This document shows, piece after piece, positions 24,449-51,235 of a stretch of DNA of 64,000 nt. Made by a program: the position numbers and the translations under genes. A model generated the notes under the pieces. It was not told the DNA's origin. It was given only the letters and a program-made list of their open reading frames with translations, and did not search any database. Location: contig JAWKSQ010000003.1 of assembly GCA_041389045.1 (NCBI GenBank), positions 105,598-169,597 on the forward strand, given 5' to 3'. Each line of letters begins with the position of its first letter. Position 1 is the first letter of the stretch. Source of the DNA: Minisyncoccota bacterium. GTDB taxonomy: Bacteria; Patescibacteriota; Minisyncoccia; Phycocordibacterales; UBA918.

Positions 24449-27400
24449 TCAGGAGTGACTTGGTGGATACTGTGGCTCCGTGACTGGCGGTACTTCAGCT
24501 TTAGGTAACTCTTCTCCGTCATAGCCAATATCAGAAGTGTCATAGTAAGGAGTCTGAGGCGGAATATCATTTACGTTTGGAATACCAAATTCATCAGGAC
24601 GAACCGGGGTATAATTAATCGGAACTACCCGCTCACCACTATCGGCAGTAATCGGTAACGCTCCCGTGCGTGGACGTACTGGAATGTCTGTACTTATTTT
24701 CACACCAGACTGTCCTGGCTTTACCTCAGGGTCGGCAAATTTCTCTAAGAGTTTTGCTACATCTATATTTTCTCCTGGTCTAATCAAAGCTGGGTTACCA
24801 CTCCCTACCCCTAGATCCTTCCACTCTTGTGGTGATAGTGTCCAATTAGGATTTTTTGCATCCGTCAATTCTGGGAACTTGCTATACATCATCTTACTCA
24901 ACTCACCTCGAGTCACTCCTTCTGGTAGTTTCAAATTCTTCAGATCAAACTGATCTACGAGATTTTTGTGGAAGATAGTCGAAACATTGTCACCCGGTTT
25001 CACTATATGCTCTATTTTAGTAACCTGCTCTACAGCACTGACCGATGGTCCTCCAGCAGGCTTTGATATGCTTTCAGTCGCAGTCCCACTACCACTCTCA
25101 ACTTCTGTCTTTACAACGCCAGGTACTGCTTCTGGATTAGGTATTTCACCCCCATTTCCTTTTATAGCATCACCCCAATAACCAGTAACCGAATCATGAT
25201 CGTAAGCACCTGTAGAAAAACCACCGGCCATTGCAGCGGCAACTGTTAGCCTCTTTTGTATCTTAATTCTATCTTGTTTCTCTGACTCAGCGGTAAGTAA
25301 CGCCTCTTCTAATGAATCAAGGTCATTAACGTCAAATTTATCTTGTATATCATCTTGTTTTTGTTCAATCTTCCGCTCCGCCGCGTTTACACCAATTTGT
25401 GTCAACTCATGCACAGACCGAGCAGCATATGTACCCACCACCATTCCTGCGAGCATTCTACCAATCTTAAGCCCACCAAACGCAAGTGCTGTAACGGCGC
25501 CACCTGTAGCGAAACCAAGAATACTAGAGGCAGCAACAGATCCAGCCCTAATTAAGTGCTTGTTTCTCGCTAAGGCTGGCATTATTTTTCGCATTAAAGA
25601 CTTTTGTTCTTCAGACAAAACATAATCTTCATGTAACTTAAGTTGTTCAGCATGCGGTCGTAAAACAAACTTTTGCCCAAAAGCCATTTTTGCTTTTGCA
25701 CTACCTGGCTTGTACCATGGCTCATTACCACCATCTTCAGTCCCACCCCGAACCCTAGCTCGAGCAGTAAGTGCTTGGTCTAACTTAACAGCGTATTCCT
25801 TACGTTTTTCTTTATAATCCTTTTCTAGTGCCACCAGCTCTGGCGGAAACTCTGATCTAATACCAAGCTTCTTGAATAGACCATCTACCGCTGACCCAAA
25901 TTTAGTTCTTTCTCCCAACTCTTTATAATGATTCTTTAGCGCTTCATCGTATGTTTTCTTTGCATTTCTGTACTCAGACTTAAAGAGCATACCTTCTGTC
26001 CCATCTTCATTTTTCTTGCGTAAACTAGATTTGGCTTCACTGTACTCAGACTCAAGATTACGATTCTCGACAGATGAGGTACTTTCATCAGGCGCCACTG
26101 CCTCAGAGTTAAAGTTTTTAAATTCAGAAATCAATACTGAATTATTAAACGTCTGATCGCCAACTTGTTTAAAGAGTAAAACCTTATCACCTTGAACACG
26201 CACGATTATCCAATCGTCTTCAATTTCTCCAGATTCACCCTTTGATTTAACTTTAGCCGCTTCTAGTAAGGCGTTTTGGAAAGCTCGTATTTTTTCTTGT
26301 TTTTCTTCAACAGATGAAGCTTGTTCTACATCAAAGTAAATAGATTCAGCCAATTGTCTTGCCTGTGCAAATGCAGATCCATGATTCAATCCCAGCAATG
26401 ACAGAGCTGACACTAAATCTGTATAGTACCTTGCCAATGAATCTACCTTTTTTTTAATTATTTCAAATTCATCATTTTTCTCTTTAGACTCCTGTTTATC
26501 AAAATCTTCTTTTCTAGCTTCTTCCGTATTTACTTTTGGCTTGTCTACTGTTGCATCAGGAGTTTTTTTCACTGAATTAACCACCTTCCTCAACTCCTCC
26601 ATCTTTACATTCAAATTTTTTAAATACTTTCTTTTTTTATTTAAGACAATATTAGGATCTGTTTCAGTAATATCATCAATAAGCTTCAAAGTCTTACCCA
26701 CTTCAACCAAAGCCGAATTGGAACCTTCGCCATGTTCTGTTAAGTATGTAACAGCGTCCTCGTACTCATGTTTAATTTCTTCAATGTTCGATAAAATTTC
26801 CTCGGATGTTTGTTCTTCCGACTTGATCTCTACTTTATCTAGAAGCACTGGATCAATTTCACGACCATGCAAAAGCTCTGACATTATTTTCAGTAATGCT
26901 TTTCTTTCCTCAAGTATAGACTCTAATTTTTTTGGGTCTTTTGTATCTCTATACTCTTTTCGTTTATCAGAGATCGAACGAAAGACAGGATTTATACGAG
27001 TCATATAATGACTTCTTCTTTCATCTTCGTTATAACCCGCTAAATACAAAATTGTACCCACATCCTTTCTTATATCCCCCAAAGCAAGCCATCTCTCTTC
27101 AAACATTGTTTCATCAGCATTTTTCCAACGCTCAAAATATTCCGCTAATCTAAGCTTTTCATTTTCATATTCGGTATTAGCTCCCTCACCTTCACTTTCA
27201 TTAGCAAAATCACCTAACTGCTCATAAAAACTTGGACCATTTAAGATATCTGAATCTAAAATCTCAACCCCACCAGCCCCATCAAAAACCTCATCCCCAC
27301 CAACCGCCGGAACTGAGTAATTTTCAAAAGAATGTGGTTTAACAAAAACTTTATTATCAATATTTACTTTACCTATTGTAGGTATAGTTGTTGTATTCGG

Positions 27401-29200
27401 TAAGTCCTGGGAATTATCTCTCTGCAAAGAATTTTGTACAAGATTAAACAGCTTATTTAATTCTTCCTGGACTCCCGCAGACAATTTTTCTCTTTTATTT
27501 TCATCATCTTCTAATACTGACTCACTAGTCAGTCTCTTAACTTCGTTAACTATATCTCCAACTTTTCTTAGAATCTCCTCCTTCTCTACACGGTCGATAT
27601 CTTGCTCTTCCACAACCAGTTTGACCTCATCAAATATTCTATCAATACCCTTATAGACAGGAGTCCCGTCAGAGTTAATAGTTTCAAAAACGGACCACTG
27701 GCCACCCCTATAAAGCTCAGTCAATTCTGAAACAGACAGAGTACCAGACTCCTGTTGTTCTTTAGGCTCCACCATAGCTTTATCCTCCGTTGAGGTGTGA
27801 GTACCCTCAACACTTTTAGCCACTAAAAAATTTGCCACTTCTGCCAACAACCTCTCATAGTAGGCACTTCTTTCATTCTTTAAATCTAGTTTATCTCCCC
27901 TATTATCATGAAAAGCCTTATTTACAGAGGAAATATCTGTACGAATGTCTCGCGCGATACTATTATTTAAAAATTCATTAATTTGTTCTTGTGTAAATCC
28001 TTCATGTCTAAGTATAAACCCGAGTTCATCCCAAACCTCGTCAATCTTTTTAAAAGGAGAACCATCATGACCAGGTGGTACTTTGAAAACTCTATTGTCT
28101 CTTTTCTTATACATTTCAGTCAATTGGACCACGTAGTTTCTATCTAATTCTTGTCTAGAGTCAAGATCATTTTCAGGTAAGGCAGAATTATCATCTGCAC
28201 CAGACTCTAATACTGAAACTTTAGTGACTTTATCCGGTGCAGGACTCGCCACGTCCACAGGCAACACAACTTTACTTACACCATCTTTTTTGATTTCATC
28301 AAGAAGCGTTTGACAAGAATTTATAAAATTAATATAGACCTCACTGAGTTTCTCTAAGGACTTCTCTAAGTTATCTTCATTAGAGATGTTCGATGTCTTT
28401 AGAATATCATTATATATAGATATTATTTTATCATATGCCACAGACTGTCTTTTCTGAGTTTTTTTAGACAATTCTTTATAGACTCGATTAAAATCATCAA
28501 ATCTTTTTGTAGCCTCTTCTCTAAATTCAACAATTTTATTTTTTAATGAATCAAAATTTTCACTATTTGACTCCAAGATAGTTGAACCCGTTACCGCTTC
28601 ATGATTTTGTTTTTCTGACATTTTATTACGATCAATTATATCATCTGGAGTGTGGTATTTGATATCTATTCCGCTATCTGGAGATTGTGATACCTTAGCA
28701 GAAAAATGCGCATTCAATATTCTAGCCGCCTCTTCAGGATCATCGATTCCAAAACCTGAATCAGAAACAGCATTTTTAGTTAAAGTAAGAATAATTTCTT
28801 GTCTTTTACTCTCTAAATTACTTTTAGACTTCTTAAGTAACTCTAGTTTCTTCTTAAACTCAACATTATCAGAATCACCATTTAAAATAATGGTATTAAT
28901 TTCTTCAATAACTTTATTTACTTCCTCCCATGAAATTGTAGCTTCAGTGAGTAAGTCCGCTACCATTAATAATTCATCGTTATTAATTTCATTAGCTATA
29001 GACTGAATTGTCTTGTACTCTTGTTCTGCCAAATCTTTGACTCTCTGTACTTCTGTAACATCTTCGTTCGATGGAGCATATTCATTTACACTAATATCCC
29101 CTTCTAAACTTTCTGAAGCATCGTGCAAAAAACGTTTATTTCTTTTAGAACCGGAGCCTCTGCTATTTTTAGTCAAATAGCCATCGCCTTCTATGTCCAT
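24449..29200 (-). CDS. Giant (1583 aa) membrane-anchored coiled-coil protein with a C-terminal LysM-like region
   Basis: An uninterrupted 4.75-kb ORF. The Glu/Lys-rich N-terminal part is about 1200 aa. Hydrophobic segments are encoded near 25425-25545 and 25203-25250. A LysM-like segment (HIVKPGDNVSTIF to LIRPGENIDV) lies at about 24757-25010, followed by a Pro-rich tail. Confidence 0.7.
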   Translation of the reverse strand: MDIEGDGYLTKNSRGSGSKRNKRFLHDASESLEGDISVNEYAPSNEDVTEVQRVKDLAEQEYKTIQSIANEINNDELLMVADLLTEATISWEEVNKVIEEINTIILNGDSDNVEFKKKLELLKKSKSNLESKRQEIILTLTKNAVSDSGFGIDDPEEAARILNAHFSAKVSQSPDSGIDIKYHTPDDIIDRNKMSEKQNHEAVTGSTILESNSENFDSLKNKIVEFREEATKRFDDFNRVYKELSKKTQKRQSVAYDKIISIYNDILKTSNISNEDNLEKSLEKLSEVYINFINSCQTLLDEIKKDGVSKVVLPVDVASPAPDKVTKVSVLESGADDNSALPENDLDSRQELDRNYVVQLTEMYKKRDNRVFKVPPGHDGSPFKKIDEVWDELGFILRHEGFTQEQINEFLNNSIARDIRTDISSVNKAFHDNRGDKLDLKNERSAYYERLLAEVANFLVAKSVEGTHTSTEDKAMVEPKEQQESGTLSVSELTELYRGGQWSVFETINSDGTPVYKGIDRIFDEVKLVVEEQDIDRVEKEEILRKVGDIVNEVKRLTSESVLEDDENKREKLSAGVQEELNKLFNLVQNSLQRDNSQDLPNTTTIPTIGKVNIDNKVFVKPHSFENYSVPAVGGDEVFDGAGGVEILDSDILNGPSFYEQLGDFANESEGEGANTEYENEKLRLAEYFERWKNADETMFEERWLALGDIRKDVGTILYLAGYNEDERRSHYMTRINPVFRSISDKRKEYRDTKDPKKLESILEERKALLKIMSELLHGREIDPVLLDKVEIKSEEQTSEEILSNIEEIKHEYEDAVTYLTEHGEGSNSALVEVGKTLKLIDDITETDPNIVLNKKRKYLKNLNVKMEELRKVVNSVKKTPDATVDKPKVNTEEARKEDFDKQESKEKNDEFEIIKKKVDSLARYYTDLVSALSLLGLNHGSAFAQARQLAESIYFDVEQASSVEEKQEKIRAFQNALLEAAKVKSKGESGEIEDDWIIVRVQGDKVLLFKQVGDQTFNNSVLISEFKNFNSEAVAPDESTSSVENRNLESEYSEAKSSLRKKNEDGTEGMLFKSEYRNAKKTYDEALKNHYKELGERTKFGSAVDGLFKKLGIRSEFPPELVALEKDYKEKRKEYAVKLDQALTARARVRGGTEDGGNEPWYKPGSAKAKMAFGQKFVLRPHAEQLKLHEDYVLSEEQKSLMRKIMPALARNKHLIRAGSVAASSILGFATGGAVTALAFGGLKIGRMLAGMVVGTYAARSVHELTQIGVNAAERKIEQKQDDIQDKFDVNDLDSLEEALLTAESEKQDRIKIQKRLTVAAAMAGGFSTGAYDHDSVTGYWGDAIKGNGGEIPNPEAVPGVVKTEVESGSGTATESISKPAGGPSVSAVEQVTKIEHIVKPGDNVSTIFHKNLVDQFDLKNLKLPEGVTRGELSKMMYSKFPELTDAKNPNWTLSPQEWKDLGVGSGNPALIRPGENIDVAKLLEKFADPEVKPGQSGVKISTDIPVRPRTGALPITADSGERVVPINYTPVRPDEFGIPNVNDIPPQTPYYDTSDIGYDGEELPKAEVPPVTEPQYPPSHS

Positions 29201-29216
29201 AGTTACCCTTCATAAG

Positions 29217-31982
29217 TTACACTATACCACCTCCGACTGGGGCTGGGGCCGGTTTTTTCTCATAGCGAGCGGATATCTCCGCTTCGACTTCAGCCCGTGG
29301 GCGACCATAGGCGCGCGCGCTCATTTCTATCATTGCCTTAACCCTACTTGGATCAGACGTAATCGGTGGACGCATCGCCACACTAAAAGGCTTGGTCGGT
29401 ACACCGTTGGCCAAAATACGTACTAGCGCATTGTAGTTTGGGGTATTCATAATATCTTTAGCCGTAAAGACGGGGGCAAACTGCTGTTCCAAGAACTGAG
29501 CGTCTTCAGAACCCACTCGGAAAGCTACTAGTGAACCAACGTTACCAAAGACAGCATCTCTGATGTCTTGATCCAGTTGCGCAATAAACTGATGGACCAC
29601 AGTTAGACTAAGCTTGTACTTTCTCGCCTCAGAGAGAATAGAAGCGATAGCCGGAGTTGAAACGTTCTGGAACTCGTCTATGTGTAGGTAGAAAGGTGGG
29701 AAGCTACGAGTCGGATCGTCCACGCGAGACAAAGCGGCCATTAAGATCTTGCCGACAAAAATCATACCGATCAGATTGGCGTTGATTTCACCCAAGCGAC
29801 CTTTAGATAGATTGACCAAAAGAATTTTTTTCTCATCCATCACTTGGCGGAAGTTAAAGGCAGACTTTTGTTGACCGATAATTGGTCGCATGTAGTCGTT
29901 AGCGGTAAAGACATCGAACTTAGACACGATATACGGCACGATATTTTCAAGTGACGCTTCGCCGCCGGCTTTGGTCGCAATCTCCGTCCAGAACTGAACC
30001 ACTACCGGATTTTTGGCCTTGGACAGTTTGTAGCGACGATACTGTGCATCGACCATCACTCTCGAAATATCCATCAAAGTATTGCCACTTTCTGGATCTT
30101 CCATTACAAGCATGGTGGCATTACGGAAATACTGTTCAAACATTGGTCCCATACTTTCGGGATTTGCGCCGTACAGTTTTTGGAAAATAGAGAAGAGTTC
30201 ATTAACCACGAAGGTTTTTTGCTCAGGCTTGTTGATATCGTACTCCAGCATATTAAGTCCAACCACATTATCCATCCGTGACGGGTCAAAATAAATCACA
30301 TCTTTGGCTCGTTCCGGTGGCATAGCACCAAGCACCTCCTCAATGTCGGTACCATGAGGATCGATCATACAAACACCATTACCCATTTGGATATCCTGAA
30401 TAATAGTATTAGTCATAAACTTGGACTTTCCAGTTCCTGTTTGACCAATAATGTAGAGATGCCTCATGCGATCGAGCTCGGTCATGTAGATAGTCTTTTC
30501 TGAACCACGGTGACGATTTTCACCCAGAATAGTTCCTTCTGTCGGCATATCGGTTGGGGCGGCCGCGGTAGCCGACTGAGACTGCTTAAATTGTGGTGAA
30601 CTGAGGATGCCGTTAGCTGGAAAATGAATGACCGTCGACAGTTCTTTTAGTGACATTGGGATAGTGGCGTTACTCAAAAACTCGCGAAAGGCAAAAGCTT
30701 TCTGCAGACGCAGGAGTGAACCCTTAGCACGCTTAAAAGTAATCGCGTTTCCTTCCACCAAATCAAACTGATTGAAGGTCGACTCTATCTCAGTCATGAT
30801 TTGTTCAGCGCGATTGGGACTTGAGGCCGACACGGCTAGACGAATATTCGTCTCCACAATGTCAGTTTCAATCTTGCGATTAAAAACTTCTATTTTGTCA
30901 CTATCTGGTGAAGTCGTGTCTTTAACTTCGTCTTTTTTGTTCTTGCTAGCAAAAAACAAATCTGTCACCGCTCCCATCAACTCTCCCCCAACCGTACTGC
31001 GAGAAATAGCATCACTAGCACTTTTACCTTTTTGAATTTCCTTAATTATATCTTCGTAGGTTTTGCGGTACTTTTTCTGGGGATGTCTAATCACAAACTG
31101 CACCGCCGCGCCACCACCTTCACGTTCAATCTTAGAAAAAGCATTAAGAATAACCGCTAGTGGGTCGGAAGAAAAACCGTCGGCAGTGCGTAGTGGGTAG
31201 ATAGGGTGCTTTTTTAGTGACGCTTCAGCCACAATATTAGTGCCACCTTCTACGAAGATGTTGTAGTCATGGGCCTTGATAGTCAGTTCTGCATGAGGAA
31301 AGAGTGACAGTGTCTGCTTTTCAAACAGAGTCACAAAGGCATTTGGTACCGCTACATAAAAAACAATGTCGTCACTATTATCAGCCACCGCTATCTCAAT
31401 AACAAAATGATTTTCCGACTGCTTAGAACCGATTGTTCTCAGTCCGGCAAAAAGTTGTTCCATCATGCCAACCAATTCGGTTATTTGGTATTCCCTACCA
31501 TCCGCCTCTTTGATTTCTGGCAAAGTGACTTCAAACAAAGTCATACTAAGCATTTGCCACGGCGGAACGTCTTCCTTCAGATCCTGCACCTTGGCACCAG
31601 AGCGAATTCGCTCCACCATCTGCCGATGCACCTCGTCCACTAAGTAAGCATTATCCATTTTCTCAAGGACTGACAGAGCATTGCGAATCCCCTTCTCTTC
31701 AGCCATTGCCATAATCTCTGCTACCGGGTCATGAGCTTGCGTCGCCAACTCCACAGAAGCCGCTAACTCATGATCATTTAAACCATGTTCCTTATCTAAG
31801 ATGAGTTTCGGTGTAAACTGCGCATATTCTTTTATTTCTTGCTTACCAACAGTCTCGATGTCAGTACGGTCAATTTCTGGCGAACGTGAAAGTAACTCTC
31901 GTTCACGGAGAGCCACTTTTTCACGCAAGTACTTAAGCTCTTCCTCCGGTGAGGAAAATTGTTGTGGGACACCTTCTGGCAT
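29217..31982 (-). CDS. VirD4/TraG/TrwB-like (type IV coupling protein family) P-loop ATPase with a long unknown N-terminal domain
   Basis: Walker A GQTGTGKS (about 30423-30446), Walker B FYLHIDEFQNV (about 29661-29693) and ARKYKLSLTVVHQF. No TM helix was seen. Confidence 0.65.
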   Translation of the reverse strand: MPEGVPQQFSSPEEELKYLREKVALRERELLSRSPEIDRTDIETVGKQEIKEYAQFTPKLILDKEHGLNDHELAASVELATQAHDPVAEIMAMAEEKGIRNALSVLEKMDNAYLVDEVHRQMVERIRSGAKVQDLKEDVPPWQMLSMTLFEVTLPEIKEADGREYQITELVGMMEQLFAGLRTIGSKQSENHFVIEIAVADNSDDIVFYVAVPNAFVTLFEKQTLSLFPHAELTIKAHDYNIFVEGGTNIVAEASLKKHPIYPLRTADGFSSDPLAVILNAFSKIEREGGGAAVQFVIRHPQKKYRKTYEDIIKEIQKGKSASDAISRSTVGGELMGAVTDLFFASKNKKDEVKDTTSPDSDKIEVFNRKIETDIVETNIRLAVSASSPNRAEQIMTEIESTFNQFDLVEGNAITFKRAKGSLLRLQKAFAFREFLSNATIPMSLKELSTVIHFPANGILSSPQFKQSQSATAAAPTDMPTEGTILGENRHRGSEKTIYMTELDRMRHLYIIGQTGTGKSKFMTNTIIQDIQMGNGVCMIDPHGTDIEEVLGAMPPERAKDVIYFDPSRMDNVVGLNMLEYDINKPEQKTFVVNELFSIFQKLYGANPESMGPMFEQYFRNATMLVMEDPESGNTLMDISRVMVDAQYRRYKLSKAKNPVVVQFWTEIATKAGGEASLENIVPYIVSKFDVFTANDYMRPIIGQQKSAFNFRQVMDEKKILLVNLSKGRLGEINANLIGMIFVGKILMAALSRVDDPTRSFPPFYLHIDEFQNVSTPAIASILSEARKYKLSLTVVHQFIAQLDQDIRDAVFGNVGSLVAFRVGSEDAQFLEQQFAPVFTAKDIMNTPNYNALVRILANGVPTKPFSVAMRPPITSDPSRVKAMIEMSARAYGRPRAEVEAEISARYEKKPAPAPVGGGIV

Positions 31983-35908: not shown

Positions 35909-36914
35909 CTACCGTTTTGCCAATACAGCTTGTTTGTAGGCGTCGAGGTGTTCGAGGGCGATACCAGTTCCGGTCGCAACACAGAAGAGGGCTTCGTTGG
36001 CTAATTGTGCCTTGACGCCGGTGCGACGCTTCACCAGCTCGGGAAAATTACGCAGTTGTGAAGTTCCACCAGTCATAATCACACCACCATCAATAATGTC
36101 AGCCAACTCCGGTGGTGTATTTTGAAAAACGTCTTTAATAGCTTTAACCATCTCTCTAAGCTCCTTACTAATTGCTCGCACCACTTCATTGGTGCGAATC
36201 TCCGTCGTCCGTGGCAAACCAGACAGTACATCGCGTCCCTTGATGTCCATAGTCAACTCTTCTTCAGTGGTAAGGCTGAACCAACCGTAATTTTGATTTC
36301 CTCAGCGGTCTTATCGCCAATTGAAAGATTCCTGGTCTTTTTGACATAATCCACAATCGCGGTCAATTCTATTGCCGGCACACTTTACGGAGTTGGCCGC
36401 TACAATGCCACCGAGAGAAATGACTGCGACGTCTATAGTACCTCCACCCACATCGACAATCATGTCCTTGTGGTTCATAGATTGGTATACCAGCGCCGAT
36501 CGCTGCCAAAATCGGCTCCTTAACTACGTAAGCATTACGAGCACCGGCTTTAATCGTCGCCTCTACCACCGCCCGTCTTTCGGTCGAAGTTACTCCCGCT
36601 GGCACTGACACCATCACGTCTGGCTTAAAAATATTGAAACGTGGCAAGGCCTTACGTAAGAAATAGCGAAGCATCGTCTCAGTGACACGATAGTCAGCAA
36701 TGACTCCATCTTTCATCGGCCGGTAGGCTCTAATACTGTCTGGTGTTCGTCCAATCATCCGCTTTGCTTCGGCGCCGACTGCCAACACCTGATTATCTTC
36801 AGATATGGCCACCACTGAGGGTTCATTCAGCACTATCCCTTGTCCAGGTACAAATACAAGAATACTAGTGGTACCAAGATCGATACCAATCTTCGGAGTA
36901 AATTTATTAAACAT
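35909..36914 (-). pseudogene. Second MreB paralog, frameshifted
   Basis: The N-terminal ORF 36914-36369 (IGIDLGTTSILVF) loses frame after IYEPQG. The C-terminal ORF 36256-35909 carries VIMTGGTSQLRNF. Confidence 0.75.
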
Positions 36915-36960
36915 TTCTTATATAGTAGCTCTTTTCCCCAAATGTACCAAGTGGAAATTC

Positions 36961-36976
36961 ATAGCATATATGCTAT
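36961..36976. promoter_or_regulatory. Perfect 16-bp palindrome ATAGCATATATGCTAT in the mreB2 / HTH-murA divergent region
   Basis: Read directly from the sequence. It lies 12 nt upstream of the ATG at 36988. Confidence 0.5.
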
Positions 36977-36987
36977 TATCGAAACGT

Positions 36988-38487
36988 ATGAAAAATATTG
37001 GACAATCAATCTCTGACTTACGCGAAACCAAAGGCCTGACCCAAAGTGACCTAGCTAAGGCGCTCAAGACCACTCAGAGCGCCGTAGCCCGCATGGAGAG
37101 CGGTAAACAAAACATCAGCGCTGACATGCTTAGAAAAATCAGTAAAGCCCTGGGTAAAAACCTCATCACCCTCTCCCCTGGCACCGTCAATATTCAAATA
37201 GAGGGTAATAAAAAACTGACTGGCACTATCGAAACTAACACTTCTAAAAATGGTGCGGTTGGTCTACTCTGTGCCAGTTTACTCAACCGTGGCACCACTA
37301 CCCTGCATCACATGCCTCGCATCGAAGAAGTCCACCGGATTATTGAAGTGCTGGAAAGTATTGGTGTTCGCGTGGAATGGAGTGGTAGTACCATCAAAAT
37401 CACTCCCCCCAAGAAGTTCGACCTAAAGAAAATCGACGTTGAAGCGGCTCACCGCACTCGCAGTATCGTCATGTTTATCGGACCCTTGATTCACCTGATG
37501 GAGAAATTCAAACTTCCCCAATCTGGCGGTTGCAAACTCGGTAGTCGTACCGTGAAGCCTCATTTCTACGCCCTAGAACACTTTGGTGTCACTATCAATA
37601 CTACTAGCGACGCCTATGAGGTAAGTAAAGTCCCGGCCTCCCCTTCAGAAATTATTCTCTATGAGTCTGGTGACACCGTCACCGAAAACGCTCTTTTTGC
37701 GGCCGCTAAGACGCCTGGTACCACAACTATCAAATACACTACGTCCAACTACATGGTGCAAGAAGTTTGTACGTTTCTAACTCTACTAGGTGTGAAAATT
37801 GAAGGTTTTGGCACTACTACTCTCAAAGTAACTGGAATCGAAGAAATTAACCAAAATATTGAATATACCCTGTCTGAAGATCCAACTGACTCAATGTTCT
37901 TTATTGCCGCCGCTATCGTCACCAACTCCACTATCACTATCACCCGCTGTCCGATTGAATTCTTGGAGCTAGAACTCCTTAAGCTTGAGAAAATGGGCTT
38001 CGAATACAAGAAATCCAAACCCTATCTTAGTCACAATGGAGTCACAAAACTAGTTGATATTACTACCAAAGCGTCAAAGCTCACCGCGTTACATGAAAAA
38101 GTTTACGGTCGCCCTTACCCTGGCCTCAACATCGATAACCTCCCTTTCTTTGCCGTCATAGCCACTCAAGCTGAAGGACAGACTCTTATCCATGACTGGG
38201 TTTATGAAAAGCGAGCCATCTACTTTACCGAACTAGACAAACTCGGCGCCGAGACGGTTCTAGCCGACCCACATCGTATCTACATCACCGGACCAACGCC
38301 ACTGCGCGCTGCCGAACTCATTTGTCCACCAGCCCTTCGTCCGGCTACTATCCTGCTGATTGCCATGCTCGGTGCCAAAGGTACTTCAATCCTACGTAAC
38401 ATCTACAGCATCAACCGTGGCTACGAAAAGTTGATCGAAAGACTTGGGTCCCTCGGCGCCCACGTCTCATACCTAGACGAGTTTTAA
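36988..38487 (+). CDS. murA: XRE-type HTH domain fused to UDP-N-acetylglucosamine 1-carboxyvinyltransferase
   Basis: The N-terminus IGQSISDLRETKGLTQSDLAKALKTTQSAVARMESGKQN is an HTH_3-like domain. The MurA/EPT fold follows, including LPQSGGCKLGSRTVKPH with the catalytic Cys. An alternative ATG lies at 36970. The track ORF start at 36805 is antisense to mreB2. Confidence 0.8.
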   Translation: MKNIGQSISDLRETKGLTQSDLAKALKTTQSAVARMESGKQNISADMLRKISKALGKNLITLSPGTVNIQIEGNKKLTGTIETNTSKNGAVGLLCASLLNRGTTTLHHMPRIEEVHRIIEVLESIGVRVEWSGSTIKITPPKKFDLKKIDVEAAHRTRSIVMFIGPLIHLMEKFKLPQSGGCKLGSRTVKPHFYALEHFGVTINTTSDAYEVSKVPASPSEIILYESGDTVTENALFAAAKTPGTTTIKYTTSNYMVQEVCTFLTLLGVKIEGFGTTTLKVTGIEEINQNIEYTLSEDPTDSMFFIAAAIVTNSTITITRCPIEFLELELLKLEKMGFEYKKSKPYLSHNGVTKLVDITTKASKLTALHEKVYGRPYPGLNIDNLPFFAVIATQAEGQTLIHDWVYEKRAIYFTELDKLGAETVLADPHRIYITGPTPLRAAELICPPALRPATILLIAMLGAKGTSILRNIYSINRGYEKLIERLGSLGAHVSYLDEF

Positions 38488-44051: not shown

Positions 44052-44079
44052 TTGAATATTCATGGTTTTTCTGTACAAT
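44052..44079 (+). promoter_or_regulatory. Candidate tRNA-Asn promoter TTGAAT-16-TACAAT
   Basis: The -35 is at 44052-44057 and the -10 at 44074-44079, about 48 nt upstream of the tRNA. Confidence 0.45.
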
Positions 44080-44127: not shown

Positions 44128-44199
44128 TCCGCGGTAGCTCAGTGGTAGAGCAGGTCGCTGTTAACGACTTGGTCGTAGGTTCGAATCCTACCCGCGGAG
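44128..44199 (+). tRNA. tRNA-Asn (anticodon GTT)
   Basis: Manual cloverleaf: acceptor tccgcgg/ccgcgga, D arm gctc-agtggta-gagc, anticodon arm ggtcg-ctGTTaa-cgact, T arm gtagg-ttcgaat-cctac. CCA is not encoded. Confidence 0.9.
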
Positions 44200-44243
44200 C
44201 AATATAAAAGTCCCCTTTTGGGGATTTTTATATTGCTCCGCGG
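44192..44243. terminator. 24-bp inverted repeat that includes the tRNA 3' acceptor strand (bidirectional-terminator-like)
   Basis: ccgcggagcaatataaaagtcccc-tttt-ggggatttttatattgctccgcgg. Confidence 0.6.
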
Positions 44244-44368
44244 AACAAGCAAACAATTTTGCTTGTGTGTAGGATTCGAAAAGATGGAGTATATCGCACG
44301 AGCGAAGCGAAGTACGATACGACATCTGTACAGCCCATGTAATGGGAGAAACTCCTACCCGCGGAGCC
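44197..44368 (+). repeat. Repeat E1: ~170-nt element ending in a split copy of the tRNA-Asn T arm and acceptor
   Basis: It is about 93% identical by eye to 45546-45712. It contains gtagg-attcgaa, then an insert of ~73 nt, then cctac-ccgcgga-gcc. Confidence 0.8.
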
Positions 44369-44372
44369 AACA

Positions 44373-44401
44373 TTGACATAGCACACTTTGTGTGCTATTG
44401 T
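44373..44401 (+). promoter_or_regulatory. Promoter TTGACA-17-TATTGT with an embedded palindrome ATAGCACAC-TTT-GTGTGCTAT
   Basis: The -35 is at 44373-44378, the -10 at 44396-44401 and the palindrome at 44378-44398. Confidence 0.6.
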
Positions 44402-44448
44402 CTTTTTAGTAAAACGTCGATCCTTTCCATAACTCTACGAGGCACCTC

Positions 44449-44919
44449 ATGACCAAAATCATTTGTGCCTTCGCAGGCACAGGTAAGACAACAGCTTCCC
44501 AGAGCACTCTGTGGCACGTACGAGATAGCGACAGTGATGAATTTCGGTTCATTAACGCACGTCTCAATCGAAAACCAGAAGGTCAAAACCCGCTCTGGCC
44601 ACAAAACTACATCGACCACGCCGTCACGGAATATGCCAAGGGTGACTTTGATGCAATCCTGATGTCCGCGTACGTCGAACTTCTGCCCAGGATTGCAGAG
44701 CGTATTCCACTCACCTACGTCTATCCATCACTGGATATGAAAGATGAGTTCGAGATGCTTTATCGCAATCGTGGCAATCCCAACTGGCTGGTAAGTCTGC
44801 TCATTAACCACTACGATGAATGGATCACGGCACTGATGGCAATGGATGGGCATCACGTCGTTTTGAAACCTGACCAGTACCTGACTGATGTTCTGCCTGA
44901 AATATTGGCAGGAACCTAG
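44449..44919 (+). CDS. Small P-loop NTPase (156 aa) of cassette A
   Basis: Walker A FAGTGKTT at residues 8-15. GAGG lies 8 nt upstream of the ATG. The ORF is intact and has its own terminator. Confidence 0.6.
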   Translation: MTKIICAFAGTGKTTASQSTLWHVRDSDSDEFRFINARLNRKPEGQNPLWPQNYIDHAVTEYAKGDFDAILMSAYVELLPRIAERIPLTYVYPSLDMKDEFEMLYRNRGNPNWLVSLLINHYDEWITALMAMDGHHVVLKPDQYLTDVLPEILAGT

Positions 44920-44962
44920 CTCGCCGATGGAAAGCTTTCCATCTTGGCGAGCTTTTCATTTT
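44919..44962 (+). terminator. Rho-independent terminator
   Basis: gctcgcc-gatggaaag/ctttccatc-ggcgagc followed by cttttcatttt. Confidence 0.7.
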
Positions 44963-44990
44963 GTTAGAGCTAGAAGATGATTAGCACCTA

Positions 44991-45019
44991 TTGATTCTTT
45001 ATTACTTGTACCATATAGT
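44991..45019 (+). promoter_or_regulatory. Promoter TTGATT-17-TATAGT
   Basis: The -35 is at 44991-44996 and the -10 at 45014-45019. GGAGA and the ATG at 45072 lie downstream. Confidence 0.5.
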
Positions 45020-45071
45020 TACAAATGCCAAGTAACGTGCTTGGTTGTACCCTTAACTTTTGGAGATATCC

Positions 45072-45443
45072 ATGAAAACTGCCTTGTCTTTGCCGATGGG
45101 TACCACCAAGGTCGCGCACCTCCCACTTTCGACATGCACCGTGTGGAAGCGTCACTGTTGACCAACCACAAGTTGTTCGACGGCATTGCTCTCTCCGAGC
45201 AAGCGGTTAAGGAAGCGTCACTCAGATCGCGCCTTTCTCCAGCGACACAAAGAAGCTGGTATGCCGACTGATTTCGGAACTTCTCAAGATCGTCGATCGT
45301 GTGTGGCACACGCACATGTGCGAAACTCGCCAATGCCGCAGACTGGAGGTTCGTACTTCGGCCAGATGTTCCATCACTCGAACGACACCTGTGACATGAA
45401 GCTGCTCCGCAGGAGTAAGGTAGGGCAGAACCTTCGCCCCTGA
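45072..45443 (+). other. Second transcription unit of cassette A; coding frame unresolved
   Basis: The frame from the ATG at 45072 runs 124 codons to the TGA at 45441, but with an in-frame TGA at 45159-45161. Other frames and the opposite strand are also open. Confidence 0.3.
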
Positions 45444-45448
45444 ACTAG

Positions 45449-45500
45449 CCCGCACGAAACACCCGCCAACCTTTGGCAAGTTTCGTCCGGGTTTTTCTTT
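45449..45500 (+). terminator. Rho-independent terminator
   Basis: cccgcacgaaac (45449-45460) pairs with gtttcgtccggg (45480-45491) at 11 of 12 positions, then tttttctttt. Confidence 0.65.
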
Positions 45501-45545
45501 TACCTCAATCCCAAACCGTAGCGTTCGAACATCATTCACCCAGCG

Positions 45546-45712
45546 GAGCAATATAAAAGTCCCTTTGGGATTTTTTTATATTGCTCCTGGAACAAGCAAA
45601 CAATTTTGCTTGTGTGTAGGGTCAAAAGATGGAGTATATCGCACGAGCGAAGCGAAGTACGATACGACATCTGTAAGCCCATGTAATGGGAGAAATTCCT
45701 ACCCACGAAGAA
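45546..45712 (+). repeat. Repeat E2 (second copy of E1, tRNA-like parts more decayed)
   Basis: It aligns with 44197-44368. The differences concentrate in gtagggtcaaaag and cctacccacgaag. Confidence 0.8.
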
Positions 45713-45715
45713 ATA

Positions 45716-45752
45716 TTGACAAGGCCATTATACATTGTATAATGGCCTTGTC
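45716..45752 (+). promoter_or_regulatory. Consensus promoter TTGACA-16-TATAAT inside a perfect 15-bp-arm palindrome
   Basis: gacaaggccattata-cattg-tataatggccttgtc at 45718-45752. Confidence 0.65.
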
Positions 45753-46476
45753 TGTTCAAGATTAACGTTCTTTGGAGGAAGAGAATGATTGATACACCGG
45801 AAAAGATCAGGAATACCTCTTTGTTACCGAACCGGCCAAACCCGAAGAACCGAAAGAGGTTCGCATCCACCCTCTGTCTGTAGTTGCTACAAGCACGAGA
45901 AGTTGATTTTGGTCTTTGAGAGGGCTAGAAAGGAGCTTCCCTGCTTGGAAGCACAGTGGAGCAACTCGAATGCTGTGCTGTTACTGCAATGCTCACTCAT
46001 CGTCCTGAAGTTGTAGCTTGCTACAAACAGCAGGACATGGCCGAGCAGAAGCTGGCCCAGATCAAGGCTCATACCCCGTTCATTGCAAAGGCTTGCCACT
46101 ACATTCGCGCTTTCGAGTGATGAATGACCTATCTACAACTGAAAGAGTAACCTATGGACAAAACACCTGGGTCGTACCTGGACAGTATCCGACCAAACCT
46201 TCTTGGAGGCCATAAAGCTGGAAAGGAGGGACCGAGGAAGCCCATGCTTCACTCTAAAGAAAGGTTACTTTACTCCACCCCGCTCGACCATGGAACCTAG
46301 GTTTTCAAAGACAGAGGTATGGGAAGGGTGATTTACGCCATTCTCGATAAGTTCGGTGATTTGATCGTAGAGGCACGTCGAGAAGTTGCCGCATATCGTT
46401 TGCGGTAAACGACTATAAGGGGCTTTAGCTTCAAGAGCAAGCTAACACAGACCGTCACACCAAGTGGAAGAAAGGA

Positions 46477-46520
46477 CCGTCGTCCCCACTTCCCCCACTT
46501 CGGTGCGGCGGTTTTCTTTT
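46477..46520 (+). terminator. Terminator of cassette B
   Basis: ccgtcg pairs with cggcgg (one G-U pair), then ttttcttttt. Confidence 0.45.
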
Positions 46521-46561
46521 TATATACTCACACAAGTTCGAACATCCTTAACCTATCGGAG

Positions 46562-46929
46562 TAAATATTGACAAAGCCAGTATGTATGACAAACTGTCTT
46601 TGTTCTGTTCACACCTAAAGGGAGATTATCTTGAGTACCTTAGAAAAAACTTTGAAGTGCACTTCATATGCGGATGGGAGGGTCGACGAGTCATCGAGAC
46701 CCTGAAGCCAAAATCCGATAAAAAGCATTCTTACACTTGGTAGGAACCCGGCCTGCAGGGATCAAAATGCCCCAATGCCAATCTGATACGACACCCAGCA
46801 CCAAGCAATTGGTGTCGTGACAACCACCGCCACACTACTAGTGAGACGAGAAAGCTAACGCTTCGTCTCACGGGGTGGCGGCTTTTTCATTTACATAAAA
46901 AGTTCGAACATCATCAAAAGTCCAGAGCA
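46562..46929 (+). mobile_element. Cassette C (shortest unit) ending at junction R3
   Basis: aaatattgacaaagcc at 46563-46578, GGGAG plus the TTG at 46631, a terminator at 46827-46890 and R3 gttcgaacatcatcaaaagtccagagca at 46902-46929. Confidence 0.35.
46827..46890 (+). terminator. Nested-hairpin terminator
   Basis: gtgagacga (46841-46849) pairs with tcgtctcac (46863-46871). This is enclosed by ccgcc/ggcgg, then ctttttcattt. Confidence 0.6.
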
Positions 46930-46975
46930 TCCAACATAAAAAGCACCCTTTAGGGTGTTTTTCTATGTTGATGCT
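46926..46975. terminator. Hairpin analogous in shape to 44192-44243 but with a different sequence
   Basis: agcatccaacataaaaagcaccc-ttta-gggtgtttttctatgttgatgct. Confidence 0.5.
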
Positions 46976-47107
46976 TTGCAGGAGAAAGAAACGGCATTGC
47001 TTTCGTTAGGATTAGACTCATCTGATATCCTCTCAGAGGATATTTTCTTAAGCGGATTTATAATTTATCCATCTCGGTACGCTACCGATTTAGTTAAAAT
47101 TTTAAAT

Positions 47108-47827
47108 ATGAATAATACTTTAAACAAGTTTAGGAAACATGCAATTCTAACGGGTATTTTTTTTCTCATTACTGACGTAATAGCCATTGTCGGACTACTT
47201 TTATATCAACCATTGCTAAACAACCCAAAATTCATTACTACTTTAGATGTTAATGCCACTCAAATCCTGATTGGTACTTTTGTCTGGAGATAATTCTAGC
47301 AATTGGTATTGTCGGTACGGCACTTGCTCTATATCCAATTTTGAAAAAACAAAATCAATCACTAGCACTTGGGTACGTGATATTTAGGGCTATGGAAGCC
47401 ACAATAATTCTAATCGGGGTAGTGTGTATTCTCTCGACACTTTCACTTTCGTCTAGACTTAGCAATAGGTGGTGATGCCTCTGTTTATGAAACAATCGGT
47501 ACAGCACTAATAGCGCTCCAGAAATGGACATTCTTGTTCGGACCAAATATTATCTTGCCAATAAACGCAACGATTCTAGGATACATACTATATAAATCAA
47601 GATTAGTCCCTCGACTAATTTCTGCTCTTTATTTATTTGATGTCCCAATCCTGCTTATCTCTAGTGTATTTATACTATTTGGATTTTATGAACAGACTGC
47701 GCCATTTGCAATAATCATTGCCATGCCAGCACTAGCTTTTGAGGTTTCATTTTCTCTTTGGCTCATAATTAAAGGCTTTGACACGCAAGCTCTGACATCA
47801 CTAGAAAATAAACGTGGTTTGTATTAG
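47108..47827 (+). pseudogene. DUF4386-like membrane protein, two frame changes
   Basis: The pieces MNNTLNKFRKHAILTGIFFL, LEIILAIGIVGTALALYPILKK and the ORF 47534-47827 (FEVSFSLWLIIKGF) tile one protein. Confidence 0.55.
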
Positions 47828-48477
47828 TTATTACTAATATCTCTCATAAGGCTAAAGAACCAGAGAATCTGACTAATAACAAAAATTCCGATTCCGATGT
47901 CTGTTAGATATGGTAGTGCAGAGATAGTTCCTCCAATAAAAACTAATGCGCCTAGTATGTTTGTGACCATTGAGCTAAATCGTGCTTTATACATCGCCAG
48001 ACTCAAGAGTCCAGTAAAGACACCTCCCATCAGCTCATTGCCGCCACCAAGAGCATTGCTAATGATATCAATGGCTTGCCAAGCAAAGACTAGCTCACTA
48101 GCAGCAGTTCCGTTCATGAGAAGAGTAGTAAGTCCCATAGATATGAATCCACTAGCAATCAAAATAGTTGCCCAGATAACGCCAGTAATCAGACTTAGCA
48201 ATCCAAGAATTGGTTGTTTTTCCTTTAGTCTCAGATACAAGTATGTTGCAAGCAGAATAATTCCAAATGAAAATATAATGTATATGTGTAAAGTAGTAAT
48301 GTGGACCAGGACTGGGTTATTACCAATAATATCTATTTGTTCGCTAGCTGAAGTCGCGCTGTCGTACTGTAATAATTGTAGGTATACAAATATTCCAGCG
48401 ATGTAAGAAAAACCACCATATGCAGCACTTATAGTGGCTATTTTTTTGAAAAACAACATACAAAAAGCATACCACAT
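47824..48477 (-). CDS. Hypothetical polytopic membrane protein
   Basis: 217 aa with about six TM helices. Confidence 0.45.
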   Translation of the reverse strand: MWYAFCMLFFKKIATISAAYGGFSYIAGIFVYLQLLQYDSATSASEQIDIIGNNPVLVHITTLHIYIIFSFGIILLATYLYLRLKEKQPILGLLSLITGVIWATILIASGFISMGLTTLLMNGTAASELVFAWQAIDIISNALGGGNELMGGVFTGLLSLAMYKARFSSMVTNILGALVFIGGTISALPYLTDIGIGIFVISQILWFFSLMRDISNN

Positions 48478-49667: not shown

Positions 49668-49775
49668 TCATCAGCATTTAGTTTTAATAGTTTAATATTT
49701 GATATCGACTATTTCCTTGTCTTAACATTGAGTCGAGGCCATTCTTTTCAAGATTTATATAGAGAAATGAATGTT

Positions 49776-50250
49776 TTAATTTAGGTAACTATCAAAATAA
49801 ATAGCGTGACAGGTATAGCCACCAGGGTGTTTTTCTAGATAATCCTGATGATAATCTTCTGCTGGCCAAAACCTTTCAAAAGGCTCCAGTGTCGTTACCA
49901 CCCTATCTTCCCATCGTCCTGACTCGTCAACGATCTCAATCATTTCTTCAGCCACAGCTTTTTCCTGCTTCATCTTGGAAAAATATTGCCGAACGATAAG
50001 AAGTACCCTTATCATTACCTGCTGATTTAAAGTGGTGGGGTTATGAATTTGAAAGAAGAAATCGAGAATATGCTTATAGTCAATTACGTCCGTCTCATAC
50101 CAATCTCAGTGCCTCGGCGTGACCCGAATGATTTTCGTAAGTAGGATTATCATTCTTTCCTCCGGTATACCCAGCCTCAGTCGTAACTAATCGGGCAAAT
50201 TTCTAAACAAATCTTCCAAACCCCAAAACATCCACCGGCTAAATAAGCTT
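49776..50250 (-). pseudogene. msrA: Peptide-methionine (S)-S-oxide reductase, several frame changes
   Basis: The ATG at 50250 opens MTKKAYLAGGCF. Shifted frames give WGLEDLF, EAGYTGGKNDNPTYENHSGHAEALRLV, YETDVIDYKHILDFFFQIHNPTTLNQQ and the ORF 50015-49776 (FWPAEDYHQDYL). Confidence 0.75.
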
Positions 50251-50289
50251 TCTTTGTCATATGGTATTACTATAGCAAATGTTTAAATC

Positions 50290-51235
50290 TGGTTGAAAAT
50301 AATCTTTTCTCCATAAGAATTAATCACTATTGAGAAATCTTTATAGTATGATTTGATTCTCTGGCCTCAAAGACGCAGGTTTGTTCCCCACAACTACCCA
50401 GGAAAATCATGTCCCAACAGAAAAAGGCCCGCGGGGCCGACTGACTTTCAGCTTCGTAACCAGATCCGTATATGACGCCCTTTTGGTCATGCAGACTCAC
50501 GGCCACCACCGCACTGGCTTTGGCGGTCGACAGCGACGTTACATTCACTTTTCCAAGACTGGCGATGGCGAGATCAGTATTTGCCGTTCCGACGGACCAC
50601 ACATTTGGAACTACGATCGGAACGCCTTTATCAACAAGGCCGTCAGGTGCTACCTGGAATTGATCGCACGGTCACGGTGGAACCTGGCGCCGGACTCGAC
50701 TACATCCCTGCTTACGAGCAGATGATGACGAAACTGAACAATCCCAGATTTGCCCTCAAGACGTTGGAAAACCTGGGTCATTTCCTGCGCCGACAAAGGT
50801 TTATCAGTTGAACGCGCTGGCCGAAATGGCCAAGGACGATCGACCGGAAACGCCGGCGACAATCATCGAGCTGTGCGCTCCTGAGCAGAATCTGCTATTG
50901 GGCAAAACGGATGAGTCTCCTGGTGAACTTCATTCAGAAGATGTCTCAAAGCGACCGCTACTCCAAACCATCGACACTGTCAGGTCTTCTGGAGGCGCTG
51001 TTCATGAGCGGCTAGCGATTCCGATGAAGACGGCTTCGACGCATTCGGAAGCTTTGCAGACATGCTTCGTCAACAGACTAAGCGATCGGATCGGCCCTGG
51101 CCACATGACCAACGGCGTCGTGAAGGCGCACGTCTTCTGATAAACCCTTTGACGGCGTTAGATAACGCCGCAAACCCACCGCAAATGTGTGTGAGAATTA
51201 CTCGACTAGCATAGTGGTAGGTTTTTCTTTATATA
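50290..51235 (+). mobile_element. Cassette F: GC-rich insert between msrA and pspC
   Basis: Hand counts give 63% GC for 50641-50700 and 47% for 50881-50940. The plus-strand reading from the ATG at 50409 to the TGA at 51140 needs frame changes. The tail gtggtaggtttttctttatatat overlaps the pspC stop codon. Confidence 0.35.
51175..51230 (+). terminator. Candidate terminator of cassette F
   Basis: cccaccgc (51175-51182) pairs imperfectly with gtggtagg (51214-51221), then tttttcttt. Confidence 0.3.

Follow-up and report, generated by a model that had tools for sequence, protein, structure and literature searches.

We analyzed a 64,000-nucleotide stretch of contig JAWKSQ010000003.1 (positions 105,598 to 169,597 of the forward strand, GenBank assembly GCA_041389045.1), hereafter the window. 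It comes from a metagenome-assembled genome (MAG) of Candidatus Paceibacterota, within the candidate phyla radiation (CPR), and reads as ordinary chromosome. Its sole tRNA gene according to ARAGORN and Rfam, a tRNA-Asn, is followed on the 3' side by an array of about 2.8 kb of promoter-to-terminator units, which is the subject of this report. An earlier note made from the letters alone had already described an intact tRNA (44128-44200) followed by repeated modules, and both are present. Core genes lie just 5' of the tRNA, namely those for peptide deformylase (def), formyltransferase (fmt), a ribosome hibernation factor (HPF), and a glutaredoxin-like protein. The rest of the window holds cell-wall, MreB, aminoacyl-tRNA-synthetase, and ABC-transporter genes. 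Among 2.5-kb blocks of the window, the array has the highest G+C content (47.7% versus a window mean of 42.0%), and only 0.3% of 2.56-kb windows are equally high. It is thus G+C-richer than its surroundings, as had been claimed, but the shift is modest, and the contrast of 52% to 37% first given for it was overstated. Upstream of the tRNA, the promoter motif GTTGAATAT-N9-TTCTGTACAATACA is conserved in 10 orthologous metagenome loci.

The array consists of units of 0.35 to 1.2 kb each (Table 1). Promoter-to-terminator units are indeed what is found, but they are not the three simple modules first proposed: unit 1 is itself a composite, and a structured element that we call X stands in front of both unit 1 and unit 2. 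Unit 1 contains a P-loop gene with its own terminator, followed by a second promoter-like site and a G+C-rich stretch without an intact open reading frame (ORF). This stretch, 1b, is the most G+C-rich part of the array (50.8% over 44966-45522, and up to 55% in 300-nt windows). The terminator of cassette 1a differs from the one found 3' of the P-loop gene in related loci. The cassette bodies have folding z-scores only slightly below zero, which are not diagnostic of RNA genes.

Table 1. Features of the tRNA-Asn array, in window coordinates.
Feature	Position	Strand	Evidence or remarks
tRNA-Asn promoter-like site, TTGAAT-16-TACAAT	44052-44079	+	promoter scan
tRNA-Asn, anticodon GTT, intact, no intron, no encoded CCA	44128-44200	+	ARAGORN; Rfam, 72.7 bits
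Hairpin of bidirectional terminator type, 24-nt arms; stem includes the 3' strand of the tRNA acceptor	44192-44243		arms 96% complementary; -45.5 kcal/mol, z -12
X1, structured non-coding element	44201-44369	+	covariance-model match 44235-44368, 101.8 bits
Promoter P1, TTGACA-17-TATTGT, extended -10 TG; contains palindrome ATAGCACAC/GTGTGCTAT	44373-44401	+	promoter scan, 10/12
Cassette 1a gene, 156-aa P-loop protein, predicted nucleoside/nucleotide-kinase-like fold	44449-44919	+	homologues, PHROG, AlphaFold2, Foldseek
Cassette 1a terminator	44918-44962	+	hairpin and T-run, z -4.6
Sub-unit 1b weak promoter-like site, TTGATT-17-TATAGT	44991-45019	+	promoter scan, 9/12
Cassette 1b body; overlapping or fragmentary ORFs, at most 85 aa	45020-45446	+	ORF list, G+C profile
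Unit 1 terminator	45447-45501	+	hairpin and T-run, z -5.1
R1 junction, GTTCGAACATCATTCACCCAGCGGAGCA	45523-45550	+	putative relic of tRNA-Asn, T loop to 3' end, with small insertions
X2, second X copy	45551-45712	+	covariance-model match 45583-45712, 70.3 bits
Promoter P2, TTGACA-16-TATAAT, inside a perfect palindrome with 17-nt arms	45716-45752		promoter scan, 12/12; repeat search
Cassette 2 body; four short ORFs (29-54 aa) in one frame with stop codons between	45785-46409	+	ORF list
Unit 2 terminator, weakest of four, followed by motif TTTTCTTTTTATATACTCACACAA	46475-46521	+	z -1.45
R2 junction, GTTCGAACATCCTTAACCTATCGGAGTA, abutting P3	46536-46563	+	repeat search, alignment scan
Promoter P3, -35 TTGACA intact, -10 degenerate	46568-46596	+	hexamer only; no + strand promoter listed by the scan
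Cassette 3 body; short ORFs only	46600-46826	+	ORF list
Unit 3 terminator	46827-46890	+	z -6.5
R3 junction, GTTCGAACATCATCAAAAGTCCAGAGCA, most degenerate	46902-46929	+	repeat search, alignment scan
Distal hairpin; stem starts in GAGCA	46923-46978		-30.9 kcal/mol, z -6.1

The hexamer TTGACA stands at all three sites where strong sigma-70 promoters had been proposed (44373, 45716, and 46568), and P1 and P2 read as promoters; P3 retains only its -35 element. P3 is homologous to P2 (73% over 41 nt), and P2 has a weaker mirror promoter on the minus strand. Two promoters had been described as embedded in perfect palindromes, which is true of P2, whereas P1 itself contains a 9-bp perfect hairpin (44378-44398). 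A promoter of the P1 type, with its palindrome, precedes the P-loop gene in five related loci as well (L003, L007, L009, L056, and L057). The palindrome ATAGCACA-N3-TGTGCTAT, located between the -35 and -10 elements, is conserved in the P-loop cassette promoter and in that of a 137-aa cassette unrelated to it; it occurs at 44378-44398 in the window, at about 4430-4460 and 5330-5350 in L003, at 4630-4655 in L009, and at about 440-465 in L057. This palindrome may be an operator for a shared repressor.

A hairpin with a T-run was found at each terminator previously listed (45449-45500, 46477-46520, and 46827-46890), and a fourth, unlisted one lies at 44918-44962. The motif that follows the unit 2 terminator is also present in L003, L009, L056, and L057. 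The unit 3 terminator is 82% identical to a terminator in L009 that precedes a junction of the Y form, described below. The array ends in a distal hairpin that has the same architecture as the hairpin spanning the tRNA end and X1, but a different sequence; it represents either the terminator that the tRNA originally had or a truncated X. The arrays of L052, L056, and L057 end analogously, in X copies that are truncated.

Only the first, tRNA-proximal cassette carries a recognizable gene. Its P-loop product has 26 homologues, is 100% identical to a protein of a 179,624-bp contig of a Candidatus Paceibacterota MAG, and falls into PHROG 4182, a phage protein family of unknown function (E 3e-30). 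An AlphaFold2 model of the protein reached a pLDDT of 92, and Foldseek matched this model to Fap7/adenylate kinase, NRK1, shikimate kinase, and YorR with TM scores of 0.55 to 0.6. The protein is a probably kinase-like member of a phage-associated family. It has no match in Pfam or PADLOC, and a PDB sequence search with the family profile gave no significant match. Scanning genome contigs with the P-loop family returned one close locus, the family being otherwise thinly spread over many phyla. The short ORFs of units 1b, 2, and 3, and likewise the cargo of other cassettes, matched nothing in Pfam, PHROGs, or PADLOC; a 345-aa concatenate of the 1b, 2, and 3 ORF fragments had no homologue among 5.8 billion proteins.

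The units are followed by 28-nt junctions of the form GTTCGAACATC-N-CGGAGCA, which we call R. The broader pattern GAACATC-N10-13-CGGAGCA is found in the window and in L001, L047, L052, and L056. Within the 64 kb, GTTCGAACATC occurs exactly at 45523, 46536, and 46902 and nowhere else. The tRNA lacks it, in agreement with the earlier remark that the junctions resemble one another more than they resemble the tRNA. We aligned the tRNA from T loop to 3' end locally against every 32-nt window (31984 in all). R1 scored 27, the best match outside the tRNA and X, and R2 scored 18, a marginal value that 97 of the 31984 windows attain. In the alignment of R1 with the tRNA, GTTCGA[AC]ATC[AT]TCACCC[A]GCGGAGCA, the insertions are small, and by this comparison R1 appears clearly tRNA-derived. 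The first unit begins directly 3' of the tRNA end ...GCGGAGCA.

Related loci carry either R or a second junction form, Y (L003, L009, L056, and L057), which is about 130 nt long, contains two GTTCTGAA boxes, and ends in ...CCCGTCC-N-GGGAGCCA. The two forms are homologous or allelic: they have the GTTC box and the ...GTCC...GGAGCNA end in common, and R resembles Y minus the stretch between the boxes. The post-terminator motif TTTTCTTTTTATAYACTCA precedes the box in different cassettes and genomes, and the segment comprising R2 and P3 is 86.5% identical over 52 nt to a junction and P-loop promoter in L056. R is near-identical in R1 of the window, L047, and L056, even though the tRNA of L047 ends in CCTGCCCGGGGAGC. 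The relic thus keeps its sequence where the local tRNA differs, and therefore travels with the cassette. Every R and Y copy is oriented like the tRNA, even where the cargo gene lies on the opposite strand (L001). Junctions and X copies often end in GAGCCA.

Element X is about 165 nt long in the window and 135-170 nt overall. X1 opens with the terminator hairpin. Next comes the tRNA 3' end in inverted orientation, interrupted by hairpin A; hairpins B and C follow, and the element closes with the tRNA 3' end in direct orientation, finishing in CCA. The inverted copy occupies 44235-44281 (GCTCCGCGG ... GTAGGATTCGAA), and the direct copy, CCTACCCGCGGAGCCA, abuts P1; a copy of the tRNA 3' end likewise sits immediately 5' of P2. 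X1 and X2 share blocks of 52 and 32 nt at 100% identity. Hairpins A and B of X2 are untouched (100% identical to those of X1), and the changes are concentrated in the tRNA-like segments, every one of which is degraded. The tRNA end and both X1 arms contain the palindromic hexamer CCGCGG (44192-44197, 44238-44243, and 44360-44365), which is broken in all distal copies, that is, in R1 and both X2 arms (45540-45546, 45585-45590, and 45703-45709). The X repeat, the additional and inverted copies of the tRNA end, the composite nature of unit 1, and the confinement of a recognizable gene to the first cassette had all gone unnoticed in the earlier note.

X is conserved in structure. Ten X copies align as four hairpin helices enclosed by an acceptor-like plus T-like helix, and RNAalifold found compensatory changes in 29 of 38 pairs. 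Across the complete structure of 48 pairs, 90.7% of cells are paired, with a covariation score of 0.451; slid controls reached at most 0.105, and none of 500 shuffles attained the observed value. In hairpin C, a UGUAR loop is retained while the stem covaries freely. The covariance model built from X matches only these loci, including copies outside its training set (L057, L007, and L053). The inverted arm matches the local tRNA in five sequence variants or lineages, among them a variant of the T loop in L057. Even without selection, such an arm could stay matched to the tRNA through templated correction of quasi-palindromes. We considered that the inverted tRNA copy might be a primer-binding site and discarded this idea, as the copy is complementary to the genomic ...GAGCAA and not to CCA. 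X is separate from the cassettes: it follows the tRNA and some junctions, and it precedes units 1 and 2 but not unit 3. It may be the second arm of an attachment site or an independent structured repeat.

Parts of X also occur on their own in relatives. A module of hairpins A, B, and C, fused to a partial 5' copy of tRNA-Asn (acceptor strand and D arm), lies upstream of the real tRNA in L003 (935-1120), L007 (2264-2403), L052 (7994-8115, minus strand), and L047 (60-240 as oriented), where the X model scores 27-60 bits; the window has no such copy. In L050, two inverted A-B-C modules without tRNA-like arms occupy an intergenic position (2270-2490) 9 kb from the tRNA. Because the module occurs both upstream of the tRNA and at this site, it looks like a dispersed structured repeat.

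We assembled related loci from the contexts of P-loop homologues and from a metagenome scan with the conserved tRNA-Asn promoter, which together gave more than 12 independent loci (handles of the type L003). The comparison of the tRNA-Asn locus that the earlier note had called for revealed insertion polymorphism rather than conserved core sequence, from an empty site in L051 to four or more cassettes in L003. In L051, an intron-less tRNA-Asn ending in CCA is followed by a plain terminator and unrelated genes, with no X and no cassette. L046, L050, and L053 have X alone, and X plus one cassette is found in L057 and in L007, which is syntenic with the window (fmt-HPF-glutaredoxin). L003 has the order tRNA-X-X-gene-Y-APH kinase-Y-X-gene-Y-X-P-loop-Y. 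L009 and L056 hold several units each, and L001 has three R junctions without a tRNA within 8 kb; the cargo of these longer arrays, that of L003 included, differs. The cargo of the relatives is ordinary accessory metabolism (APH-type kinase, glyoxalase, SOUL, NUDIX, and YkuD). The P-loop cassette occurs in seven contexts with differing neighbors, and its left edge is sharp, with 4-5 nt (12 in L003) between the GAGC(N) end and ATTGACA.

In many relatives, the orthologous tRNA-Asn is interrupted within its anticodon loop by a group I intron (Rfam 77-95 bits), and for this reason ARAGORN misses the interrupted genes; the tRNA-Asn of the window has no intron. Intron sites are at 1153-1403 in L003, 2494-2776 in L007, 11578-11816 in L050, and 7658-7898 (minus strand) in L052; by eye, introns are also present in L046, L048, L053, and L057. 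In L050 and L046 an HNH endonuclease ORF lies inside the intron, and a homologous HNH gene is free-standing just 3' of X in L052. The usual distal neighbor of the tRNA-Asn, X, or array in relatives is a gene for a basic protein of about 47 aa (MTRIIALSPKKN...), found at 2864-3007 in L001, at 5300-5422 in L009, and downstream of X in L046, L050, and L053; tblastn found no copy in the window.

The locus is a hypervariable accessory-gene islet, a tRNA-anchored, additive gene-acquisition hotspot with a new structured element. The simplest account that covers the comparative data, and one we hold with moderate confidence, is that integrase-less, moron-like cassettes, which have their own attachment-site relic and are mobilized in trans, inserted serially at the 3' end of the tRNA-Asn. 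Successive insertions of tiny self-contained transcription units (promoter, cargo, and terminator; 0.35-1.2 kb) would build the islet, each bringing at its 3' end a relic, in R or Y form, that mimics the portion of the tRNA between T loop and CCA end. Recombination would take place at or beside the position of the mature tRNA 3' end, so that the tRNA would stay intact. Newcomers would enter beside the tRNA and push older units outward, where these would decay. Because no unit encodes a recombinase, the enzyme would be supplied in trans, most likely by a tyrosine recombinase elsewhere in the genome or on a helper element. The earlier note had likewise pointed out that serial site-specific integration at a tRNA gene would leave such a layout, and the empty, one-cassette, and longer arrays of relatives, the seven contexts of the P-loop cassette, and the single orientation of the junctions agree with it.

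A gradient of decay runs outward from the tRNA in the window. The junction scores fall from 27 to 18 to 14; X is intact as X1, degraded as X2, and missing before unit 3; the -10 element of P3 is lost; and a recognizable gene remains only in the proximal cassette. This gradient fits entry at the tRNA side.

We searched for the enzyme in cis. None of the tested window ORFs of at least 150 aa matched a recombinase Pfam family at E<=1e-3 (a 1583-aa ORF was outside this test), consistent with the earlier remark that no integrase was seen in the 64 kb. The gene tables of L001, L003, L007, and L009, and the downstream regions of L052 and L053, also held no recognizable recombinase. The proposal that the units are satellite-like elements found no support, since the array has no phage or satellite genes apart from its member of PHROG 4182.

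Several observations weigh against serial insertion. Resemblance to the tRNA from T loop to 3' end had been claimed for all the junctions; in the alignment test it stands for R1, is weak and marginal for R2, and is no better than chance for R3 taken alone, whose score of 14 is matched by 672 windows. Because GTTCGAACATC is common to R1, R2, and R3, the relics form a lineage of their own rather than independently displaced tRNA ends. The decay gradient is seen in the window only and not in L003. No recombinase, circular junction, or excision product was seen. Viral contigs were scanned for the cores of R and Y, for the end of Y, and for the X pattern; matches were nil or at chance level, and no element with R or Y was found among these contigs. 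Some strain differences break inside X, away from a junction (L047 versus L049), and the P-loop cassette of the window, now fused to 1b, no longer has the terminator and R that usually accompany it; therefore, events that are not site-specific also shape the locus. X copies are closer within a genome than between genomes (X1 and X2 of the window, L057, and the L003 subtypes), which fits local duplication or gene conversion better than independent arrival. Finally, the sequence is a MAG in which 165-nt repeats at about 95% identity could be misassembled, and other assemblies break here.

The main rival is shuffling without any dedicated recombinase, which we consider possible but rather less likely. 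In this scheme, the composite junction (terminator T-tract, TATACACTCAA motif, R or Y, and promoter -35 element) would be a portable patch of homology, resembling the promoter-early stem-loop elements (PeSLs) of phages. Gain, loss, and reordering of cassettes could come about by homologous or short-homology recombination between junctions, or transformed DNA could recombine between the flanks, that is, between the tRNA-Asn with X and the next core gene. Composite junctions are conserved over 50-90 nt between different cassettes and genomes, and they carry a consensus sigma-70 promoter and a stem-loop terminator, as in the description of PeSLs (PMC2839356). The homogenized X copies within genomes, the breakpoints inside X or inside a cassette, and the lack of a recombinase in cis also point toward this scheme. 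However, an identity of just 70-87% over short stretches makes the junctions a poor RecA substrate. Shuffling also leaves unexplained why a tRNA-3'-end-like GGAGC(N)A end lies at a fixed 4-5 nt from the next promoter, why the arrays are anchored at a tRNA, and why they have a single polarity.

In T4-type phages, PeSLs combine a sigma-70-like promoter and a terminator stem-loop, bracket small ORFs, shuffle them, and form mini-circles (PMC2839356; PMC4122927). The array described here is similar in that a composite promoter and terminator motif is repeated between small ORFs. It differs in being chromosomal, with bacterial core genes as flanks and no phage DNA match, rather than lying in a phage hyperplastic region. 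Moreover, its motif includes a segment like the tRNA 3' end and has a tRNA gene as its anchor. The likeness is one of architecture.

More speculatively, the locus could belong to a gene-capture system of CPR/Paceibacterota, an integron analogue built on tRNA mimicry, although we regard this as improbable. The tRNA-Asn 3' end would be the fixed entry site, cassettes would carry a tRNA-mimic site, and a dedicated recombinase encoded elsewhere would insert and excise them. X, with its acceptor/T-like helix, would then serve either as a cofactor made of folded DNA or RNA or as the site's second arm.

It is still less probable that the array is what remains of a prophage or other large element at tRNA-Asn whose integrase and structural genes were deleted, leaving moron-like early units together with intergenic repeats. 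In favor of this, the P-loop gene is a member of a phage protein family, the transcription units are autonomous and deviate in G+C, and the distal units and downstream flank are rich in pseudogenes. Nonetheless, none of at least 8 related arrays contains an integrase or phage hallmark gene, their cargo is metabolic, and DNA similarity to phage and plasmid records is limited to the tRNA. A single decaying element also does not explain why cassette order and content vary between genomes. Juhala and Hendrix reportedly described, in 2000, the morons of lambdoid prophages as autonomous promoter-gene-terminator units of deviant composition. The present units are likewise autonomous and unlike their surroundings in composition; unlike morons, they have no surrounding prophage and form an array with repeated junctions.

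An integron-like platform, in which the tRNA 3' end would be the attI site and an unrecognized integron-type integrase would act on folded, single-stranded, attC-like cassette sites, is disfavored and in our view very improbable. Like integrons and clusters of attC sites lacking integron-integrases (CALINs), the arrays are one-way series of single-gene cassettes with a recombination site at each 3' end; CALINs, too, are without an adjacent integrase, and X is conserved in structure rather than in sequence, as attC sites are. Yet no IntI-like gene was found, R is only 28 nt long, and X is missing at some cassettes and present elsewhere without any cassette. We rejected the idea that Y is an attC-type hairpin, as its consensus secondary structure has 0 pairs. 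The mechanism is disfavored because Y is unstructured, because the GTTCGAA core, with C at position 4, does not fit GTTRRRY, and because the cassettes have their own promoters, two of them with full consensus; the tRNA anchor is a further difference. R also lacks, by eye, the layout of Xer dif/pdif sites (28 bp, with two 11-bp arms and a 6-bp spacer).

We see equally little likelihood that the junctions are RNA signals, tRNA-like 3' elements that would direct processing of read-through transcripts by RNase P, RNase Z, or the CCA-adding enzyme. The frequent GAGCCA ends of junctions and X copies and the strongly covarying acceptor/T-like helix of X would suit such a role, but R has no T-arm or acceptor pairing partner and sits 3' of intrinsic terminators. 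Rfam returned no family for X at E<0.1, with only the tRNA and the group I intron matching. In a strand test of X as RNA, G-T and A-C mismatches were equal (14 versus 14); therefore neither strand is favored as RNA, and the structure may matter as RNA of either strand or as DNA.

Least likely of all is an assembly chimera of foreign, G+C-richer reads misjoined at a repeat: the MAG source, the repeats, and the breaks of other assemblies at this locus are compatible with it, but independent JGI, ENA, NCBI, and Logan assemblies have the same architecture, and an artifact is unlikely, although the exact copy number in the window is less certain. Several assemblies end at the tRNA or no more than about 130 nt from it (L044, L045, and L054), and the contigs found with the HPF neighbor are about 1 kb long and end about 100 bp past the glutaredoxin-like gene beside the tRNA.

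Serial insertion follows the pattern of integrative elements that accumulate in tandem at tRNA genes. Among these are tycheposons, whose arrays and remnants in Prochlorococcus islands grow as newer units push older ones inward and leave degenerate partial tRNAs (bioRxiv 10.1101/2020.12.28.424599). Here, too, the units lie at the 3' end of an intact tRNA gene, putative partial tRNA copies stand between them, and relatives have empty sites. The units differ from tycheposon-type accretion in their size (0.35-1.2 kb), single cargo, and lack of an integrase (0 of about 20 units seen). Their relics, R and Y, are a conserved, cassette-borne lineage rather than copies of the local tRNA; each unit has a consensus promoter abutting the relic, and the host belongs to the CPR. 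Measured against integrative elements that target tRNA genes, the locus has an intact tRNA with insertion on its 3' side and a site that is empty or variable in relatives, and has no integrase in or beside the element. Cis-mobilizable elements (CIMEs) are comparable integrase-less remnants at tRNA genes.

CPR bacteria have tiny genomes, and how they gain genes is little understood; this locus and its relatives reveal a recurrent, compact hotspot of gene acquisition. The units are far smaller than ordinary integrative elements, and each has a promoter, a terminator, and a tRNA-like site but no enzyme. If insertion is site-specific, there would be a new recombinase-site pair to identify, with a short site possibly useful as a tool; if it is not, the locus would be the first cellular counterpart of the PeSL shuffling principle of phages. 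Independently of the mechanism, X is a new candidate structured element with strong covariation support and an inverted arm that tracks the neighboring tRNA in five lineages.

Downstream of the array, a membrane-protein gene of native G+C adjoins it (47090-47830, plus strand) and is frameshifted and split over two frames. An MsrA-like gene, also of native G+C (49700-50270, minus strand; motifs AYLAGGCF... and GYTGG..NPTYE), is likewise broken by frameshifts, into three frames. The long genes in other parts of the window are intact. Because the flanking genes are frameshifted while these long genes are not, we read the downstream flank and the distal units as a zone of real decay or local pseudogenization, or else of poor consensus in a strain-variable region. 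A fourth G+C-rich block (50340-51230, 52.5%) starts with a promoter-like site and includes a terminator that also carries the TTTTTCTTTATATA tail. No R junction accompanies this block, its reading frame is interrupted, and none of the fetched loci matches its DNA.

Four further observations concern the assemblies and the wider window. The L048 contig ends within X in an Illumina adapter (AGATCGGAAGAGC...; 556-605 as oriented). In L007, a run of N (3138-3256) has the X-promoter sequence duplicated on either side. The 1583-aa ORF mentioned above lies beside a 921-aa homologue of VirD4/TraG-like coupling proteins with HerA, T4SS-DNA_transf, and TraG-D_C domains (24449-31982, minus strand), and the two could represent DNA-transfer or DNA-uptake machinery about 12 kb from the array. 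At 36805-38487 (plus strand), an enzyme of the EPSP-synthase family (MurA type) has an N-terminal HTH_3 DNA-binding domain, which is an unusual fusion.

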